A stretch of DNA of 64,000 bases from a virus. Below the pieces are notes generated by a model. That model was given only the letters and a program-made list of their open reading frames with translations, did not search any database and was not told where the DNA came from. Both the position numbers and the translations under genes were made by a program. Location of the stretch: positions 17,584 to 81,583 of the IMG/VR virus record IMGVR_UViG_3300025872_003406. One strand, 5' to 3'. Numbering within the stretch: position 1 is the stretch's first letter; every line of letters starts with the position of its first letter. Shown in pieces: positions 37,951 through 63,383 of this stretch.

Positions 37951-37997
37951 TATAAATAGGTGGTCTGGGTTTTTACTCGGACCACCTATTCTGTTTT
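37951..37997 (+). terminator. Terminator-like hairpin overlapped by late promoter TATAAATA (37951-37958)
   Basis: AATAGGTGGTCTGGG-TTTTTA-CTCGGACCACCTATT followed by CTGTTTT. Confidence 0.7.
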
Positions 37998-57056: not shown

Positions 57057-58148
57057 ATGTCAGTCCTTAGTTTTCCAGCATCACCTACTTCCGGTACTCG
57101 GTATATTTCACCGAATGGAATCACCTATTTCTACGCAAATGGTAGTTGGAATACCGATGGTGCATCGCTGAGCCCAAATCCAACTCAACAGAACCCATTT
57201 CGATATCGCACAATCTATACGCGCGGATATGTTCACTGCGGATATCAGAACGGATCACCCTGGAGAAATACAAATCGTACTCTTCATGTGACAGATACGA
57301 CTACCAACCTAGGTGATATGATGGATAATAATGCGTCCTATATCGATGGCGGATTTAGCGACTATAATACCTATGTCTTTAATAATTCTGGCAGCGTAGG
57401 TGGAACATCCGCCACAGTGTCATCGATGAGCATGGTGACTGAAACGCTTCGCACATATTCAAATACTCGTGATCTAAAAACATCTCGAGCAAACTGTAAA
57501 GCATTGATGAGTCCTGGATTGACAGCAATCTATATCACCGGAGGAAATCAAGCATCAACGGATAAGTTTGATACTGTTACGGATACAATGTTATATGCTG
57601 GAAGTGCTCCATCTGGAGCAACTGCGGGTGGAACTGGTGGTGGTCTAAGTGGATTCTTCGGTGAGTTCAAGGGGTTGGTCGGAGCAAATGGCACGTCAGG
57701 CCTATTTGACTGGGCTACAGAATCCTGGACCTCTGGAACATGGAGTAGTTCGGCATCATTCAATAATGCTGGCGCAACTGACGGCCAGCCTAAAGGCCTT
57801 TCGAGTAAATGGGGATATGGCTACAACGCAAACGGAAGTTACGGCGGATCATCTACTTACTATAAGTTCAATGATACAACAGGAGCATATCTTTCCGCCC
57901 CTTCTCGTCCGTTCAAGGCCGGCGAAGAAAACTGTCAGATCGGACAGGACTGGGGATATATTCTAGGAATGTATAACGATATCGGTGATGGACAAAATAA
58001 TCGTTCTCACAAGACATCTTACTTGACCGATACCTCCGTAGAATTAGGATCCTCTGGGCAGCCAAAAGGTCATGGCGGAATGTCATCCGGAGCGTGTGGA
58101 ACTGGTAGTGTTACTCTTCTCGGTGGAACGATGGGAACAATGATCTAA
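57057..58148 (+). CDS. Gly/aromatic-rich probable virion protein (beta-propeller-like repeats)
   Basis: N-terminal FPASPT.G..Y...G..Y...GSW fibre-type motif. GYxxGG and DKFDTVTD Kelch-like repeats. Confidence 0.65.
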   Translation: MSVLSFPASPTSGTRYISPNGITYFYANGSWNTDGASLSPNPTQQNPFRYRTIYTRGYVHCGYQNGSPWRNTNRTLHVTDTTTNLGDMMDNNASYIDGGFSDYNTYVFNNSGSVGGTSATVSSMSMVTETLRTYSNTRDLKTSRANCKALMSPGLTAIYITGGNQASTDKFDTVTDTMLYAGSAPSGATAGGTGGGLSGFFGEFKGLVGANGTSGLFDWATESWTSGTWSSSASFNNAGATDGQPKGLSSKWGYGYNANGSYGGSSTYYKFNDTTGAYLSAPSRPFKAGEENCQIGQDWGYILGMYNDIGDGQNNRSHKTSYLTDTSVELGSSGQPKGHGGMSSGACGTGSVTLLGGTMGTMI

Positions 58149-58150
58149 CT

Positions 58151-58738
58151 ATGAAATACTTTTTAGCAAAATTCCTGCGCTACGTGCCTCAGATCGATGG
58201 AGTAGAACATATCAGCGCCGTCGATAATTTCAACATCATCAAGGTGAGTACGGATCAGGCACTTGTTGAACTTCAGTCTCATCCAGATGAAATTCCATTG
58301 GTTGAAATTACTGAGATTGAAGCCACAGAGGCATTCAAGTTTTACGGAGAAACGCGCGGATACCGTAAGGTATATTCTGACTACGCCGGCCTTGAGCCCG
58401 ATGCAGATGAACTGGCCAAAGGTCAACGCAAGACAAAGGTCTATCTGGCTGACAGCTTAAAGCCTCATGTGATTTCTCTGATGAAAAAGGCGTTTAAGTT
58501 CCATGTCAACGAGGAAATGGAGCATCGCAAGCATCATGACCACGATTGCTATGATAAAGCTCAGCACGATAGTCTACTTGCTCAGGTGGATGGTTTTACC
58601 ACAATTGAGCAGATCGTAGATGCTCGTGAATCACTTCTGGGAATCGAGATGTGCAAAGATCGTGCATCAAAGTTAGGCAAGTGGGATCACGAGAAAGACA
58701 ATCGAATAGATCGAGTCAACTTCGGTATTCAGTTTTAG
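58151..58738 (+). CDS. Hypothetical protein with His-rich patch
   Basis: 195 aa containing HRKHHDHDC. Confidence 0.75.
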   Translation: MKYFLAKFLRYVPQIDGVEHISAVDNFNIIKVSTDQALVELQSHPDEIPLVEITEIEATEAFKFYGETRGYRKVYSDYAGLEPDADELAKGQRKTKVYLADSLKPHVISLMKKAFKFHVNEEMEHRKHHDHDCYDKAQHDSLLAQVDGFTTIEQIVDARESLLGIEMCKDRASKLGKWDHEKDNRIDRVNFGIQF

Positions 58739-58757
58739 AACCCGTATAAATTATATT

Positions 58758-59468
58758 ATGAATGAATCTGAAATTTTAGAATTTGTAAATCAGAATGAGA
58801 ACTCGCTAGGAATGTCGGACTTTCAGTCTCGATATTTCGTAGTCAACTCGCAGGTCACAAATTACCGCAGAGTACGTCAGGCTCTTGTAGAACTCGATAC
58901 TCGAATCGGTATGCTCAAGCAAATCCAGCGCGAGCGAAAGAAGAGAGTAATACAGAAAGAAATGCTTCTACGAGATATTGCGAATGAGCCAGATGATCTC
59001 AAGAAACAACTGCTTCAGGTAGATGTCGAGCAAGCCGATTGGGACATTCATATGTTCGATAAGAAAGAACGGATGTGCCAGAATGAGATGAACGGATTCA
59101 TTCAGATGATAAAGGATCTCGTTCCTGATATTGCTGAGCTCAAGAAATTTGCAGAGCATAATGAGTCAGAGGAGCGCACCTATTGGATCACTCGTCTGGC
59201 AAAGCAGGCAGCAATGGATCTGAATACCATTGGTCGAGTCAGCCAGGGTAATATGGATGCCATCCTAATGATGCCGCTACCGGACGTAAATGAAGCACTT
59301 GGCCTCGCCGTTAAGTACAATTTGGTACTCGGTAAAGGCATGGAAGCAATCGGTCAAGGCGTGATGGAAAAGGCAGGTCTGCTGAGTGATGGAATTAACT
59401 ACATTGATAATGTTGCAAACGAGCAGCTGAAGCTCGAGCAGAACAAGACCGCAGGTGAAACTCTTTAG
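58758..59468 (+). CDS. Coiled-coil hypothetical protein
   Basis: GMSDFQ..FVV, YRRVRQAL.EL and YWITRLAKQAAMDL...GR...GN motifs. Preceded by TATAAATT (58745-58752). Confidence 0.78.
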   Translation: MNESEILEFVNQNENSLGMSDFQSRYFVVNSQVTNYRRVRQALVELDTRIGMLKQIQRERKKRVIQKEMLLRDIANEPDDLKKQLLQVDVEQADWDIHMFDKKERMCQNEMNGFIQMIKDLVPDIAELKKFAEHNESEERTYWITRLAKQAAMDLNTIGRVSQGNMDAILMMPLPDVNEALGLAVKYNLVLGKGMEAIGQGVMEKAGLLSDGINYIDNVANEQLKLEQNKTAGETL

Positions 59469-61089
59469 TATACCGCTCAATCCTAAGCTCACAGAAAATC
59501 AGTTTCATTCGTTTGTTACGTTCTGTCAGGAGCATCGGGATTACATCTACGACATCTATTTTACCTGTCGCATTCCTCCGTTCAATCAGGATGCGATGGG
59601 CGATGTCTTTCTGAATCCAGAGGATCATCAGAGCGCAATCTACACTGCGCTGCAGATGCCAGCATTGACTGGAATTCCGATCTCTGCAACGTTCAATAAC
59701 ATATCGGTACGGCCAGATCAAAAGAACCTGCAGATCTGGATCGATAACTTTCAGGCACTATATGACTCGGGCGTTCGTTCCTGCACGTTGCCTCATACTC
59801 ATTGGCTGCTGACCGGTCAGATTCAGAAGCAGTTCCCTGAGCTGTTCATCAAGAATACGATCCTGCGTGCTGTGAAGGAACCACGAGATGTTGCTAAACT
59901 CGCAGAGGCCGGATTCCATTATGTCAATCTTGATCGAGCGCTGATGCGCGATGAGGAACGGTTGAAAGAGATCAAGCGAGTCAAGGACAAATACGGAATC
60001 AAACTTTCGCTGCTCGCAAATGAAGGATGCGTCGGTGGATGCCCAGTGATGGATGAACACTATCAGTTCAACAACACACGGACCGATGGACCGCAGTACT
60101 TCACTGACCCGATCAGCCGAGTGAGCTGTCAGCATTGGCACACGAAGGATTCCGCGATTCAGCTCAAGAATGCGAACTTCCCACCGTGGCGAGCAGACTG
60201 GCTACGCTTTCAAGAACTAGGCATCGATGTCATCAAGATGCACGGCCGCGAGAACAGTGATCGGCTAGAGGAGACGATGGATATCATTCGTCGCTTTGCT
60301 CGTGGCGAGGAGATCCTGTTTGATAATTTTAACGCCTATATCGCAGAGACGAACCTAGTGGACAAGCCGATCAATCTCTGGCGAGAGAAGATTCGCACCT
60401 GTAAGTTCGACTGCTGGGACTGCAACTACTGTGACAAGGTCTGGAAGTCAAAGGGCAACAATAATGACAGGTTAGTCGCCGCAGTATCTCAGGCTCTGAT
60501 TGATAGCGCAAATCAAAGCGTAGGCGAAACGCCCGATGGTCTGACATCGGACAAGATGAAAGCATTGCTTAACTCGTTGGCTGCAATATCTGCCACGTAT
60601 CTTGAGGTCGGTGTTCTCAATGGTGCAACGTTCTGCTCGGCGCTCAAAGGTAATACTTTACAAGCATTTGCAGTCGATCACTGGAAAGATCAGACAAAAG
60701 CTGCAAACGGAAAAGATGTTGTCGGATCCAAGCAACAGTTCATTCAGAACGTCCAGAAGTACAAGGGGCAAAATACCGTCGTGCTGTTTGACTGTCACTT
60801 TCTGCAGGTCGATAAGAAACAGCTGCCTCCGATCGACCTGTTCTTCTATGATGCGGATCACTCCGAGCAGGCAAACTATGCTGCGATCAGATACTTTGCG
60901 GATAGTTTGGCTAATAAAGCAATTCTGATCTTCGATGATGCGAACTGGGATGGTGTAGTTGCTGGTGCTCGTCGTGGGATTGCTGATTCGAAGCTCGAGA
61001 TACTCTACGATAAGATCATACTCAACGCGCAGGAGGACGACGCGATGTGGTGGAATGGATTCTACATCGCAGTCGTGAAGAAACAATGA
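59455..61089 (+). CDS. Peptidase U32-family-like (Fe-S) domain fused to a class I SAM-dependent methyltransferase
   Basis: N-terminal domain: NLDRAL, LLANEGCVGGCP...H, SC..W, KMHGRE (compare U32 KIEGR) and CKFDCWDCNYCD. C-terminal domain: YLEVGV..GATF, VDHW, DLFFYDADH and LIFDD.NW (Methyltransf_24-like). Confidence 0.75.
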   Translation: MKLFSIPLNPKLTENQFHSFVTFCQEHRDYIYDIYFTCRIPPFNQDAMGDVFLNPEDHQSAIYTALQMPALTGIPISATFNNISVRPDQKNLQIWIDNFQALYDSGVRSCTLPHTHWLLTGQIQKQFPELFIKNTILRAVKEPRDVAKLAEAGFHYVNLDRALMRDEERLKEIKRVKDKYGIKLSLLANEGCVGGCPVMDEHYQFNNTRTDGPQYFTDPISRVSCQHWHTKDSAIQLKNANFPPWRADWLRFQELGIDVIKMHGRENSDRLEETMDIIRRFARGEEILFDNFNAYIAETNLVDKPINLWREKIRTCKFDCWDCNYCDKVWKSKGNNNDRLVAAVSQALIDSANQSVGETPDGLTSDKMKALLNSLAAISATYLEVGVLNGATFCSALKGNTLQAFAVDHWKDQTKAANGKDVVGSKQQFIQNVQKYKGQNTVVLFDCHFLQVDKKQLPPIDLFFYDADHSEQANYAAIRYFADSLANKAILIFDDANWDGVVAGARRGIADSKLEILYDKIILNAQEDDAMWWNGFYIAVVKKQ

Positions 61090-62096
61090 TTGCAGGGCTT
61101 GAATATCTCTGGATGATCTTCTTCGTGATGATCGTCTCTGGCATTGCGAAGGAACACAATCTCTTCATGCCTCTGTACTCGTACATCAAGGATTCTTTCC
61201 AGAATAACCGCCTGGTCCTTTTCCTGACAAGTGCACTTGGAGGCATCCTGCCCATCGAAGGTAGAGTAACTGTGAGTGCCGGTGTCCTGGATACTCTGGC
61301 ATCCAAGAAATGTGTGTGCGGTAGACAGAAAATGGGAATCGTAGACTACCTATCGACTCATCACTATTATCTCTGGAGTCCACTTGAGAAGACCGTCATC
61401 TTGCCGATGGCCGCGATGGGACTGACCTATGGGGCATGGCTGGGAATCATATGGCCACTACTCTCGGTGACGTCATTGTTTATTGTACACTACGTGTTCT
61501 GGCGTGTAAATGAAGAAGATATTCAAATTGATTTCACTCCATTCAAGATGAGCGCGATCATGAGAAACGTCATGCCATTCTTCGTAGCGATTGGTACCTA
61601 TGCCTGGCTCGGTGGCGACAAACATATCTTTGCGATATTCGGAACTCTGGCACTATATTACGTATTCTTGACGCAGACCTGGGATCTGAAGAAACTGAGG
61701 TCGTACATCAAGTGGGATGTTCTGGTTACCGTGGCGGTCGTGATCGTGGCTGGAAACTACTTCAAGTCTCAGAGTAATCAGATCACAGAGATGATTCGTT
61801 CGCACGGGTCAAGCCTGGCGGTCGCGTCACTTCTGAGTTTTGTGGCCAGTTTTTTCATGGGATCCAGTGGAAAATTTATCGCCCTGGCAGTTCTGACATC
61901 CAGCATATTTGGCCCACAGTATTTTCTATGGTTCTTTGCGATTGACTATGCCGGTTATCTCTTGAGTCCGACACACAAATGCGTGGCGGTCGGTAATAAA
62001 TACTTCGGCACGCCTCTCAAGGATTATTACAAAGTTCTGGGAGTTTGGTGCCTATTATTGATTGCTACTGCTTCAGTATTCACATTCATGCTATGA
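61086..62096 (+). CDS. Multi-pass inner-membrane permease (ArsB/NhaD/CitM ion-transporter-like)
   Basis: 336 aa with about 9-11 hydrophobic segments. GGILPIEGR and GYLLSPTHKC hairpin-like motifs. ATGA-coupled to the upstream gene. Confidence 0.7.
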   Translation: MIAGLEYLWMIFFVMIVSGIAKEHNLFMPLYSYIKDSFQNNRLVLFLTSALGGILPIEGRVTVSAGVLDTLASKKCVCGRQKMGIVDYLSTHHYYLWSPLEKTVILPMAAMGLTYGAWLGIIWPLLSVTSLFIVHYVFWRVNEEDIQIDFTPFKMSAIMRNVMPFFVAIGTYAWLGGDKHIFAIFGTLALYYVFLTQTWDLKKLRSYIKWDVLVTVAVVIVAGNYFKSQSNQITEMIRSHGSSLAVASLLSFVASFFMGSSGKFIALAVLTSSIFGPQYFLWFFAIDYAGYLLSPTHKCVAVGNKYFGTPLKDYYKVLGVWCLLLIATASVFTFML

Positions 62097-62893
62097 AAAA
62101 ACTCACTACACTATTCTTCGTAATCTCTTCCATTGCACTTGCAGCGGATACTCAGGAACTTGAGGTCTTTCGAGTCACCGCGAAGTCCTATGCTCCATTC
62201 GAGTCTGTCGGCGAATACCAACAGCCGGCCTGGACGCTGACTCGTAAGTTTCCGTCCACTCGAGTCTACGTCATGACTCCGCCACGGGCAGTCATGTACG
62301 AGAAATGGTTTGATATCCGTGACAGGCAAGACGGTCCTGCCCAGATTCGTATGCGCGATGAGTTTGCGTTTGGCCTGGGAAATCGTCTGGAGCTTGACCT
62401 CTATGCTCATACGGTATATGATGGACCTGTCGGAAATCAGAGGTTCGGCTGGCGCGGATTCAGCTGGGAGGTCCGGTATGCACTCGCTGACTGGGGAAAG
62501 CTTTGGGGAAATCCGACTCTTTACTTTGAGCACAAACTGCTGAACGGAAGTCAGGGCATTGAACCAAAGCTTCTGCTCGGAGACCGAATTGCCGGTACTG
62601 ATTGGATCTGGGGTCTGAACGCCATCTATGAGGCAAACCTGAGCGGGCCCAAGGAATCAGAGTATGCTGCGACGTTTAGCATCTCAAAGATCATCACGAA
62701 GAATCTGACTCTGGGAATCAGTGCCATGTATCGGTACAATGACTATGACGGAGGGTTCTCTGAGCTGTATGCGGGCCCAAATATGCAGTACAGGTTCAAT
62801 GGGAACTCACACCTGAGCCTGGAAGTAATGCCCAGACTACTCAAGGATGGATACGACAGCCGTACGCTGTTGATCTTTGCCTGGAGATTTTAA
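62093..62893 (+). CDS. Secreted outer-membrane beta-barrel protein
   Basis: Signal peptide MKKLTTLFFVISSIALA, alternating amphipathic aromatic beta-strands and a C-terminal beta-signal LIFAWRF. ATGA-coupled. Confidence 0.72.
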   Translation: MKKLTTLFFVISSIALAADTQELEVFRVTAKSYAPFESVGEYQQPAWTLTRKFPSTRVYVMTPPRAVMYEKWFDIRDRQDGPAQIRMRDEFAFGLGNRLELDLYAHTVYDGPVGNQRFGWRGFSWEVRYALADWGKLWGNPTLYFEHKLLNGSQGIEPKLLLGDRIAGTDWIWGLNAIYEANLSGPKESEYAATFSISKIITKNLTLGISAMYRYNDYDGGFSELYAGPNMQYRFNGNSHLSLEVMPRLLKDGYDSRTLLIFAWRF

Positions 62894-62906: not shown

Positions 62907-63317
62907 ATGGCACTCACATATACCTGGAAACTCACTTCCCTAAAGAAAAAGAATAGCGGATCACTCAACGGAGTGGTCTTTCAAACATATTGGCAGAAGA
63001 CTGGTACAGATGAAAATGGTCATACCGGTACATTTTCCGGAGCGACTCCATTTGATCCCGCCCAGATCGACACAAATAACTTTGTGGCATTCGATCAGCT
63101 CACAGAAGCTACGGTTCTCGGATGGATTCAATCCGTCGTGACTGGCGCATACGAAGAGCACGTCAATGAGCAGATTCAAAAGCAGATCGATGAAAAGAAC
63201 AACGCATCTGCAGATGTTATGGCTGGATCTTTCCCATGGGATCCTCCAGCTGCAGTCGTTCCGGATCCTGCTGTACCAGCGGTTCCTCCTACGACGACTC
63301 CGCCTCCAGCGGGTTAA
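62907..63317 (+). CDS. Hypothetical fibre-associated phage protein
   Basis: YTWK...W..TGTDENG...F..FDQLTE..VLGWI motifs and a Pro-rich tail. Preceded by TAATAAATAG. Confidence 0.75.
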   Translation: MALTYTWKLTSLKKKNSGSLNGVVFQTYWQKTGTDENGHTGTFSGATPFDPAQIDTNNFVAFDQLTEATVLGWIQSVVTGAYEEHVNEQIQKQIDEKNNASADVMAGSFPWDPPAAVVPDPAVPAVPPTTTPPPAG

Positions 63318-63339: not shown

Positions 63340-63371
63340 ATGCTAGCCTGAGTAATCGGGCTAGCATTTTT
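63340..63371 (+). terminator. Intrinsic terminator
   Basis: ATGCTAGCCTGA-GTAA-TCGGGCTAGCAT followed by TTTT. Confidence 0.85.
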
Positions 63372-63375
63372 GCTG

Positions 63376-63383
63376 TATAAATA
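63376..63383 (+). promoter_or_regulatory. T4-type late promoter TATAAATA
   Basis: Exact consensus 7 nt before ATG 63391. Confidence 0.8.

Follow-up and report, generated by a model that had tools for sequence, protein, structure and literature searches.

Which chemistry does a phage encode when it joins a U32-like domain to a methyltransferase in one polypeptide? The question is raised by the open reading frame (ORF) at 59455..61089 of the stretch of viral DNA analysed here (the window, 64,000 nucleotides), which forms the 3′ 64 kb of an 81.6-kb IMG/VR viral contig (record IMGVR_UViG_3300025872_003406) with an estimated completeness of about 50%. A first-pass annotation, made by a model from the letters alone, had described the product as a U32-like domain with an extra cysteine cluster, followed by a linker and a complete Rossmann methyltransferase, and had proposed two coupled reactions on one substrate. 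In our analysis the N-terminal half was placed in a very divergent branch of the U32 superfamily, the C-terminal half is probably a cation-dependent O-methyltransferase, and hydroxylation followed by methylation emerged as the best-supported reading.

The ORF overlaps the upstream gene by 14 nucleotides and the downstream gene by 43. Its GTG start is regarded as correct because the N-terminus, MKLFSIPLNPKL, agrees with the N-termini of 19 aligned homologues. All strings quoted in the first-pass annotation were present in the ORF: besides KMHGRE and CKFDCWDCNYC (Table 1), these were NEGCVGGCPVMDEH at 60019-60060 (residues 189-202 of the protein), SCQHW at 60124-60138, EVGVLNG at 60604-60624, YDADH at 60847-60861 and FDDAN at 60931-60945. 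Judged from the sequences, these motifs are not chance occurrences. In 60 fused and stand-alone sequences with 25-81% identity to the query, the only invariant columns were F43, C192, C196, C225, C316, C320, C323 and C326, and the cysteines are the most conserved feature of the phage fusion family. A lack of conservation of the cysteines among homologues had been named in the first-pass annotation as a ground for abandoning its reading; all seven were invariant in this set. When 69 sequences of the N-terminal domain were compared, with identities down to 22%, C316, C320, C323 and C326 were still invariant, and C192, C196, C225, E190, H202, K261, G264 and R265 were conserved in at least 90%. 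The near-invariant E190 lies two residues before C192.

The N-terminal half and its relation to U32 proteins

The AlphaFold model of the whole protein had a mean predicted local distance difference test score (pLDDT) of 94.2 and a predicted template modelling score (pTM) of 0.88. Modelled alone, the N-terminal domain formed an eight-stranded beta/alpha barrel (pLDDT 94.0, pTM 0.91). When this model was compared with 48,161 PDB representatives by VIA-align, the best match was the U32 protein Mk0906 of Methanopyrus kandleri (5d88_A), with Z 17.2 and a root-mean-square deviation of 3.0 Å over 225 of 247 residues; the second match, MTHFR, had Z 12.6, and ranks 3 to 50 ran from Z 12.2 to 10.9. The same structure was also first for the whole model (Z 16.9), and Foldseek gave a best target-normalised TM-score of 0.72. 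The match to Mk0906 is one of fold, at 11% identity; it covers residues 1-271 of the model, whereas residues ~272-345, the segment with the four-cysteine block, have no counterpart there. Among viral models in BFVD, the best match after the family's own members was annotated ‘Peptidase’, from Escherichia phage OLB35.

Searches of sequence databases did not recover this relationship. No PDB sequence was matched by the query in a phmmer search, the profile of 60 family sequences reached a best E of 0.83 against PDB sequences, and NCBIfam gave no match to the query protein. Profile-profile comparison with canonical U32 proteins did. The canonical set consisted of the four E. coli paralogues and Desulfobacterota U32 proteins (PF01136 matches were found in 23 of 41 genomes); a homologue search started from UbiU gave orthologues of at least 85% identity only and was unsuited to building a diverse profile. 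Against 41 U32 cores, hhalign gave a probability of 95.0% (P 3.6e-8) over 110 columns, aligning residues 60-176 of the query with 46-156 of TrhP. This set held two bridging sequences, and after their removal the 39 remaining sequences gave 91.5% (P 8.8e-7). An over-strict purge to 32 sequences, in which everything touched by the family hidden Markov model (HMM) at E <=0.01 was dropped, E. coli TrhP included, still gave 76.2% (P 2.2e-5). The register over residues 60-176 was unchanged in all three runs, and the reversed-profile controls had P 0.83-0.89. A shallow profile of nine U32 sequences dominated by UbiU orthologues gave merely 18.8%. In the other direction, the family HMM scored E. coli TrhP at 20.5 bits, against 4.7 bits for the best reversed sequence.

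Proteins that bridge the two groups were found in cells. Four of them, of 353-376 residues (L136-L139), matched the phage-family HMM over its full length with 95-110 bits; a canonical-U32 HMM from which they had been left out scored them at 26-42 bits. Taken together with a group of 408-430 residues, the ranges were 67-110 and 26-54 bits. L136-L139 carry the same seven cysteines, as CX3C...C followed by CX3CX2CX2C. The corresponding genomic places (G037:C149, G014:C51, G016:C12, G029:C39 and G038:C64) lie above the PF01136 cut-off and are also matched by the family profile of the N-terminal domain. From the fold match, the profile-profile match and the bridging proteins we therefore conclude that the N-terminal domain is a distinct, unnamed and very divergent branch of the U32 superfamily outside Pfam's model, which bears out the ‘U32-like’ label of the first-pass annotation.

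Two features tie this branch to U32 proteins and set it apart from them. KMHGR was aligned with KIEGR, the U32 motif on the last barrel strand, both by hhalign (with high posterior) and by MAFFT; the middle two residues differ. The replacement noted from the letters was thus confirmed by two independent alignments. The second feature is the extra block. The phage family has CX3-4CX2CX2C, as do 15 of the 16 bridging proteins from cells. In the aligned columns of 12 canonical U32 proteins it is missing, although L019 has a loosely similar cysteine-rich stretch there. Because of this distribution, the four-cysteine block is, by sequence comparison, a signature of a seven-cysteine U32-like branch, and the cluster had rightly been called extra relative to canonical U32 proteins. 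The seven cysteines would fit two metal centres, either with four ligands to a U32-type [4Fe-4S] cluster and the other three to a second cluster that leaves one site open, or as three and four. Most likely, the CX3CX2CX2C block would hold the second Fe-S (or other metal) centre.

The methyltransferase half and its link to the N-terminal half

Pfam Methyltransf_24 (PF13578) matched residues 383-495 with 38.8 bits (cut-off 26.3), and Methyltransf_3 (PF01596), the family of CCoAOMT and presumably of TrmR, stayed below threshold (14.1 bits, E 0.03, cut-off 22). The VIA fold matches at Z 15.5-16.9 (5x7f, 6g7d, 4oa5, 8c9v, 4cdz and 5zw3) were cation-dependent O-methyltransferases; Rv0187, MeT1, an Anaplasma O-methyltransferase, SpnH and TrmR were tied within about 1.5 Z, with TrmR represented by 5zw3 (Z 15.5) and 8k1f (Z 14.4). 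A sequence profile was more selective. Built from 19 sequences, split forms included, it had a single match at E <=0.01 among 177,635 distinct PDB sequences, namely 5zw3, ‘Putative O-methyltransferase YrrM’ (E 3e-5). Invariant in these 19 sequences were E384, G386 and G390 of S-adenosylmethionine (SAM) motif I, D408, D466, D494, D495 and N497, as well as W533-N534-G535 near the C-terminus. In the HMMER alignment to YrrM, YDg falls on IDA and DD on DN, giving D-D-D for D-D-N at the positions expected for the metal-binding Asp ... Asp-Asn triad of cation-dependent O-methyltransferases. The Lys that follows the first Asp is not conserved in the fusion methyltransferase (H469, variable). Domain 2 is an O-methyltransferase of the COMT/CCoAOMT type, SAM-dependent and probably also cation-dependent. 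With the Pfam score, the O-methyltransferase folds and the invariant SAM motif I, the complete Rossmann methyltransferase of the first-pass annotation stood. Because its linker, residues ~327-362, is helical with block-mean pLDDT of 90-96 in the AlphaFold model, it looks like an ordered connector rather than a loose one.

Relatives of the fusion were found in at least 578 viral stretches, from which 80 loci, all with the full fusion, were kept; viral counts ‘of 80’ below refer to these. At four split loci (L130-L133, with the stand-alone form P0129) the methyltransferase is a separate ORF (E 1e-35 to 4e-44), which in four of four cases adjoins the gene of the N-terminal domain and starts within its last codons. 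Since the two parts are overlapping neighbours in all four split forms and the sole PDB sequence relative of the methyltransferase is TrmR/YrrM of the tRNA xo5U pathway, the alternation of split and fused forms, a Rosetta-stone pattern, supports a functional coupling of both parts, as had been proposed. P0124 carries a truncated methyltransferase, and no stand-alone relatives of P0133 were found in viral contigs.

The closest precedent is the yrrM-yrrN-yrrO operon of B. subtilis, which, as described in PMC6599085, encodes the COMT-like TrmR and two U32 paralogues for the successive formation of 5-hydroxyuridine and 5-methoxyuridine at position 34 of tRNA (ho5U34 and mo5U34). The same source describes YrrN and YrrO as needed for U34 hydroxylation and YrrM/TrmR as the enzyme that turns ho5U34 into mo5U34 (PMC6599085). 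In both systems a U32 protein and a COMT-like O-methyltransferase are encoded together, in an operon for TrhP1/TrhP2 (YrrO/YrrN) and TrmR, as a fusion or as overlapping genes here; given the U32 relation and the sole PDB match to YrrM, both phage halves correspond to the two components of the TrhP/TrmR pathway. The phage protein differs in being a single polypeptide without a PF01136 match, with another cysteine pattern and the extra four-cysteine block; its methyltransferase belongs to PF13578, not PF01596, and its gene stands in a fibre operon with unrelated partners.

A second comparison is offered by UbiU and UbiV, which act with UbiT in O2-independent ring hydroxylation for ubiquinone in E. 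coli. They share with the phage domain the U32 superfamily and conserved cysteines, which hold Fe-S clusters in UbiU/UbiV, and they form a pair of paralogues; likewise, a possible short paralogue stands beside the Smithella relative described below and a canonical U32 protein beside a seven-cysteine member at L165 and L166. In ubiquinone synthesis, hydroxylation is followed by O-methylation by UbiG. Unlike in the Ubi system, no UbiT/SCP2 partner was seen. The cysteine spacing also differs: CX3CX28C plus CX3CX2CX2C here, against CX6CX16CX38C in UbiU and CXnCX12CX3C in UbiV, as given in 10.1101/587956.

Possible reactions and substrates

U32 proteins are presented in PMC10990095 as the sole enzymes known to hydroxylate ring carbons with an organic oxygen donor, prephenate, most subfamilies being uncharacterised; prephenate is the donor for UbiU/UbiV (PMC10990095). 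The members characterised in the literature cited here, UbiU/UbiV, TrhP and RlhA, carry [4Fe-4S] clusters and are required for the hydroxylation of ring carbons, aromatic or pyrimidine, in a reaction that depends on prephenate and not on O2 (PMC6599085, 10.1101/587956, PMC10990095).

In the phage protein, domain 1 (residues 1 to ~335), which keeps three cysteines in the U32 cluster region and K-x-x-G-R and adds CX3CX2CX2C, could convert a ring C-H to C-OH independently of O2, and domain 2 (residues ~362-544) would then methylate the new hydroxyl to a methoxy group. The fusion would be made late, with the tail-fibre genes and partners of PHROG 1409, 1417 and 1604, often together with a DUF401 protein. 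This sequence of hydroxylation and methylation on one protein, which the first-pass annotation had put forward, is the best supported of the readings considered, and we hold it at about an even chance, with metal binding, both activities and their order predicted. As to the substrate, the link to TrmR favours tRNA or another nucleic acid, whereas the late fibre-operon setting and the partners disfavour it. A small molecule would fit DUF401 and the cellular contexts. The isoelectric point (median 5.64 in the fusion family, 5.8 for TrhP) does not separate nucleic acid from other substrates, and tRNA content was uninformative: the window has no tRNA gene, and the only one on the 81.6-kb contig is a tRNA-Met (CAT) at contig positions 230-304.

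Several observations weigh against hydroxylation followed by methylation. PF01136 (Peptidase_U32, gathering score 22.4 bits) had no match to the query at E <=1, and only one of 69 family members scanned singly matched it, weakly (13.9 bits, E 0.033). According to 10.1101/587956, U32 proteins bind a [4Fe-4S] cluster through four cysteines with the recurrent spacing CX6CX15CX3/4C; this spacing is not kept in the phage protein, which has C192-x3-C196-x28-C225. Which U32 pair C192 and C196 correspond to is ambiguous from the alignments: MAFFT with the bridging sequences placed them on U32 Cys1 and Cys2 (C170 and C177 of TrhP) and C225 on Cys3, whereas a low-confidence extension by hhalign placed them on Cys3 and Cys4. 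The Glu of the U32 motif is described as essential in PMC6599085 (E162 in TrhP, E161 in RlhA), and TrhP E162 has no clear counterpart here; its MAFFT column is a non-conserved position of strand 7. In the Ralstonia jumbo phage RP12 the genes for the PHROG 1409 protein, the N-terminal domain and DUF401 follow one another and no methyltransferase lies within 6 kb; in P0125 the N-terminal domain is fused to DUF7483 (PF24299, E 1.3e-51) with no methyltransferase, a fusion that might be an artefact of gene calling. Methylation is therefore not obligatory for the role of the N-terminal domain. Direct hydroxylase activity of canonical U32 proteins is itself reported, in PMC6599085 and PMC10990095, as not reconstituted in vitro. 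Finally, the cellular contexts of the branch are varied, comprising sulfotransferase with 3′-phosphoadenosine-5′-phosphosulfate (PAPS) synthesis, molybdenum hydroxylase and B12-radical-SAM neighbours.

The family profile of the N-terminal domain (A3) matched in 36 of 401 Desulfobacterota genomes sampled. Stand-alone N-terminal domains lie on three Smithella/Syntrophaceae contigs of 32-112 kb. The Smithella cluster (L011 1946-12252 and L012) contains a PF13469 sulfotransferase, an ATP-grasp protein, two GNATs, TauE, CysD and CysN/CysC for PAPS synthesis, and a GLUG/YDG surface-type protein. The relative has a neighbour of 259 residues (P0391) with a similar ‘AN-x-GC-x3-CP ... C’ pattern, a weak paralogue of the N-terminal domain (hhalign 39.9%; 2.9% against the shallow U32 profile). 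The cluster may be a tailoring pathway that hydroxylates and then sulfates, and a new hydroxyl could be capped there by sulfate as it could be by methyl in phages. The closest Desulfobacterota members (L155 5274-9043, L156 1257-5048 and L157 1955-5616) adjoin a molybdenum-hydroxylase-family protein of ~830 residues, of the large-subunit type of xanthine dehydrogenase, aldehyde oxidase and 4-hydroxybenzoyl-CoA reductase (E 6e-28 to 5y6q_C). A seven-cysteine member of 421 residues (L159) adjoins a B12-radical-SAM-like protein. At L165 (6317-8673) and L166 (6185-8646) a canonical TrhP-like U32 protein (E 1e-123) is immediately followed by a seven-cysteine member, a tandem reminiscent of UbiU/UbiV and TrhP1/TrhP2, which are likewise pairs of paralogues. 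What these contexts may have in common is anaerobic redox and ring chemistry. Profiles of the phage DUF401, PHROG 1409, PHROG 1417, outer-membrane-barrel and methyltransferase proteins had no match at E <=1e-3 in the 12 cellular contexts. The 259-residue Smithella neighbour had also been considered as a methyltransferase and was rejected (BLASTP E 1.5).

The varied contexts bear directly on the possibility that the U32-like domain performs some other redox chemistry, such as reduction, dehydration or electron transfer through two Fe-S centres, and that the methyltransferase uses a pre-existing hydroxyl or carboxyl group. We consider this possible, though on balance unlikely. A cysteine pattern unlike that of canonical U32 proteins, the extra four-cysteine block, the molybdenum hydroxylase/4-hydroxybenzoyl-CoA-reductase-type subunit and B12-radical-SAM enzyme beside cellular relatives, and RP12 with no methyltransferase would all be accommodated. 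Against it stands the fusion or adjacency with a COMT-type O-methyltransferase, which mirrors TrhP/TrmR and UbiU-UbiV followed by UbiG; the sulfotransferase and PAPS synthesis of Smithella would be another way of capping a new hydroxyl. Although the hydroxylase activity of U32 proteins is itself deduced from genetics, as set out in PMC6599085 and PMC10990095, every characterised member covered by the cited sources is tied to ring hydroxylation (PMC6599085, 10.1101/587956, PMC10990095). The same sources describe the functionally characterised members as Fe-S hydroxylation factors and thereby speak against a collagenase-type protease, the activity under which the family was first named. A U32 peptidase is hardly credible here: its invariant positions are cysteines of the sort that hold metal clusters, and fusion to a methyltransferase would have no rationale for a protease. 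The fold match to the ‘U32 peptidase’ Mk0906 and the ‘Peptidase’ of phage OLB35 in BFVD are the points in its favour. Nearly as remote is a radical-SAM-type site at CX3CX2C in CKFDCWDC, where three of the four cysteines would hold the cluster at which SAM is cleaved. C316-x3-C320-x2-C323 does have radical-SAM spacing and a SAM-binding domain is fused to it; however, no Radical_SAM Pfam family matched at E <=1, and no radical-SAM enzyme was among the 50 best fold matches of the N-terminal domain. Radical-SAM enzymes carry CX3CX2C after strand 1, whereas the motif here (residues 316-323) comes after the barrel and is followed by a fourth invariant cysteine, C326.

Two more specific proposals concern the substrate. 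A phage version of the TrhP and TrmR pathway would convert U34 of host or phage tRNAs, or C5 of another RNA or DNA pyrimidine, to the 5-hydroxy- and then the 5-methoxy-pyrimidine. YrrM/TrmR is the sole PDB sequence match of the methyltransferase profile and TrmR is among the tied top folds, four of 120 listed clusters are named ‘predicted O-methyltransferase YrrM’, and two of the three characterised U32 functions described in PMC6599085 act on RNA pyrimidines. We nevertheless find this proposal doubtful: the fold scores of Rv0187, MeT1 and SpnH are level with that of TrmR, the operon is one of fibre genes, apparently late, away from early and translation genes, the gene is accompanied by a membrane protein and by uncharacterised proteins that look helical or structural, the cellular relatives occur in small-molecule-type clusters, and there is no tRNA gene in the window and a single tRNA-Met on the contig. 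The setting that disfavours tRNA would suit modification of a phage virion protein, for example of an aromatic side chain in PHROG 1417 or in a fibre protein, with phenol passing through catechol to methoxyphenol; we judge this just as doubtful. The gene is embedded between fibre genes in a late-looking operon, and PHROG 1417, present in 71 of 80 loci and in up to three tandem copies, has invariant or near-invariant Tyr and Trp. The Smithella cluster, with its PF13469 sulfotransferase, ATP-grasp, GNAT and GLUG/YDG surface-type proteins, also fits, as does the action of UbiU/UbiV on a phenol ring described in PMC10990095. On the other hand, U32 proteins are not known to use proteins as substrates, the N-terminal domain of RP12 has no PHROG 1417 within 6 kb, the place among fibre genes may be only positional, and DUF401 is not accounted for by a virion-protein target.

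If hydroxylation followed by methylation is carried through to the virion, one extension follows that we put forward tentatively, as rather improbable in this specific form. Aquatic phages, among them many cultured marine cyanomyoviruses, would make a late enzyme that combines O2-independent, prephenate-type U32 chemistry with a built-in O-methyltransferase and that methoxylates a macromolecule of the phage itself, either a fibre or receptor-binding protein, at an aromatic side chain, or packaged DNA, at pyrimidine C5. We know of no phenol-to-methoxyphenol modification in viruses and of no description of 5-methoxy-pyrimidine as a phage DNA modification. On that view, U32 enzymes with the invariant CX3CX2CX2C block would form a subclass with two clusters. 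The methyltransferase fused or adjacent in phages makes for a testable chemical prediction, C-H to C-OCH3, and the identity of the substrate would either bring to light a modification new to virions or nucleic acids or show that prephenate-dependent hydroxylation reaches a further class of substrates.

Distribution and genomic setting

The full-length protein corresponds to PHROG 1458, whose function is unknown in the PHROG annotation; a second PHROG, 36869, covers only residues 4-336. By tblastn, 126 of 50,697 phage records matched, and in 121 the match spanned 80% or more of the query. By name these were 77 Synechococcus phages, 38 ‘Cyanophage’, 8 Prochlorococcus phages and 3 Ralstonia phages. 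The 40 phage rows listed had 43-46% identity, and the matched gene was labelled ‘hypothetical protein’; it is currently ‘hypothetical’ in the model cyanophages P-HM2, Syn19, S-RIM2 and P-SSM4. The homologue in Prochlorococcus phage P-HM2 (PHM2_101) is named ‘T4-like gene cluster 354’. The cyanophage proteins have the same full-length architecture and the same upstream neighbours as the fusion studied here, whereas the cyanophage loci examined lack DUF401 within the flanks covered.

A word-indexed search with 8000 scored candidates gave at least 1973 protein clusters at E <=1e-3. The 120 clusters listed all carry only PF13578, and their names are ‘hypothetical protein’, ‘predicted O-methyltransferase YrrM’ (given by JGI to four of them), ‘Methyltransferase domain’ and one MGnify code. 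The expectation of the first-pass annotation that an automated pipeline would call the protein a collagenase thus failed: Pfam gave no U32 match, the 40 listed phage records have ‘hypothetical protein’, and no collagenase occurs among the 120 listed cluster names. A literature search at abstract level found no description of the fusion protein. What is newly drawn here is a divergent U32 branch that Pfam does not recognise, with seven invariant cysteines, a large phage radiation (the 126 sequenced phages being nearly all cyanomyoviruses) and cellular members in anaerobes.

Table 1. Features of the fusion gene and its surroundings, in window coordinates
Feature	Position	Strand	Remarks
Whole fusion ORF	59455..61089	+	GTG start, 544 residues; full-length match to PHROG 1458, E 4.8e-171
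TIM-barrel core of U32-like domain, residues 1-271	59455..60267	+	VIA-align to 5d88_A; hhalign to canonical U32, residues 60-176
C192-x3-C196, directly after barrel strand 7	60028..60042	+	invariant in 60 sequences
C225	60127..60129	+	invariant in 60 sequences
KMHGRE, counterpart of U32 KIEGR, barrel strand 8	60235..60252	+	K261, G264, R265 in >=90% of 60 and of 69 sequences
C316-x3-C320-x2-C323-x2-C326, extra four-Cys block	60400..60432	+	invariant in 69 sequences
Class I SAM-dependent O-methyltransferase domain, residues ~362-544	60538..61086	+	PF13578; VIA fold matches; 5zw3 profile match
363-residue partner, PHROG 1417	57057..58148	+	in 71/80 viral loci
195-residue partner, PHROG 1604, fast-evolving	58151..58738	+	11/80 loci by phmmer; profile also recovers cyanophage copies
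236-residue helical partner, PHROG 1409	58758..59468	+	directly upstream in 75/80 viral loci; also P-HM2, S-RIM12, RP12
DUF401 membrane protein (ion-transporter superfamily)	61047..62096	+	PF04165 E 3.3e-13; PHROG 14035 E 2.9e-86
Nearest upstream T4-type late-promoter core TATAAATA	37951..37958	+	8 sites in window
First strong terminator-like hairpin downstream of cassette	63340..63367	+	12 pairs and T-run

In the window the gene is surrounded by fibre-type genes, including three Laminin_G_3 proteins and a fibre of 1352 residues that ends in a Peptidase_S74 chaperone domain. Of its immediate partners (Table 1), the PHROG 1409 protein had no Pfam match, and an ESM Atlas score of 0.76 was uninformative. 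Several Tyr and Trp positions are invariant or nearly so in the PHROG 1417 family; a Kelch match was seen in one of 27 members and was weak (E 0.14), and a PDB profile search returned nothing relevant. At L130 (44-3427) three tandem PHROG 1417 paralogues precede the split pair of N-terminal domain and methyltransferase. The start of DUF401 overlaps the end of the fusion gene. Of the 80 loci, 65 have at least 3 kb of downstream sequence, and at 53 of the 80 DUF401 is the next gene on that strand; it also occurs in RP12. The upstream neighbours GC351-353 of P-HM2 match the upstream partners of the cassette; at the cyanophage loci L001, L002 and L008 (P-HM2, S-RIM12 and L008) the three upstream partners were present, with no DUF401 within the fetched flanks.

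The expression of the cassette can be approached through the T4-type late-promoter core TATAAATA, of which the window contains 8 copies against 1.73 expected; none of 100 shuffles reached 8. On the + strand no copy lies between the nearest upstream site at 37951 and position 63376, where a new TATAAATA follows immediately after the hairpin at 63340-63367. Given this spacing and the hairpin followed by a new promoter core, a single late unit of ~25 kb (37951-63367) may comprise both the fibre genes and the cassette. The overlaps of 14 and 43 nucleotides at the two ends of the fusion gene would fit co-translation. From the promoter-core positions, the terminator hairpin and the gene overlaps we infer that the fusion gene is expressed late, together with the fibre genes.

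Two further genes lie in this putative unit. The first, at 62045-62893 with a probable start at ~62093, encodes a protein with a signal peptide and an aromatic C-terminal end and no Pfam or PHROG match; it is a candidate barrel protein, which accompanies the fusion in 3 of the 80 loci and at L132 and L133 lies between the methyltransferase gene and DUF401. The second, at 62907-63317, is a DUF7936 protein (E 1.2e-17), which stands at the end of the unit and accompanies the fusion in 7 of the 80 loci.

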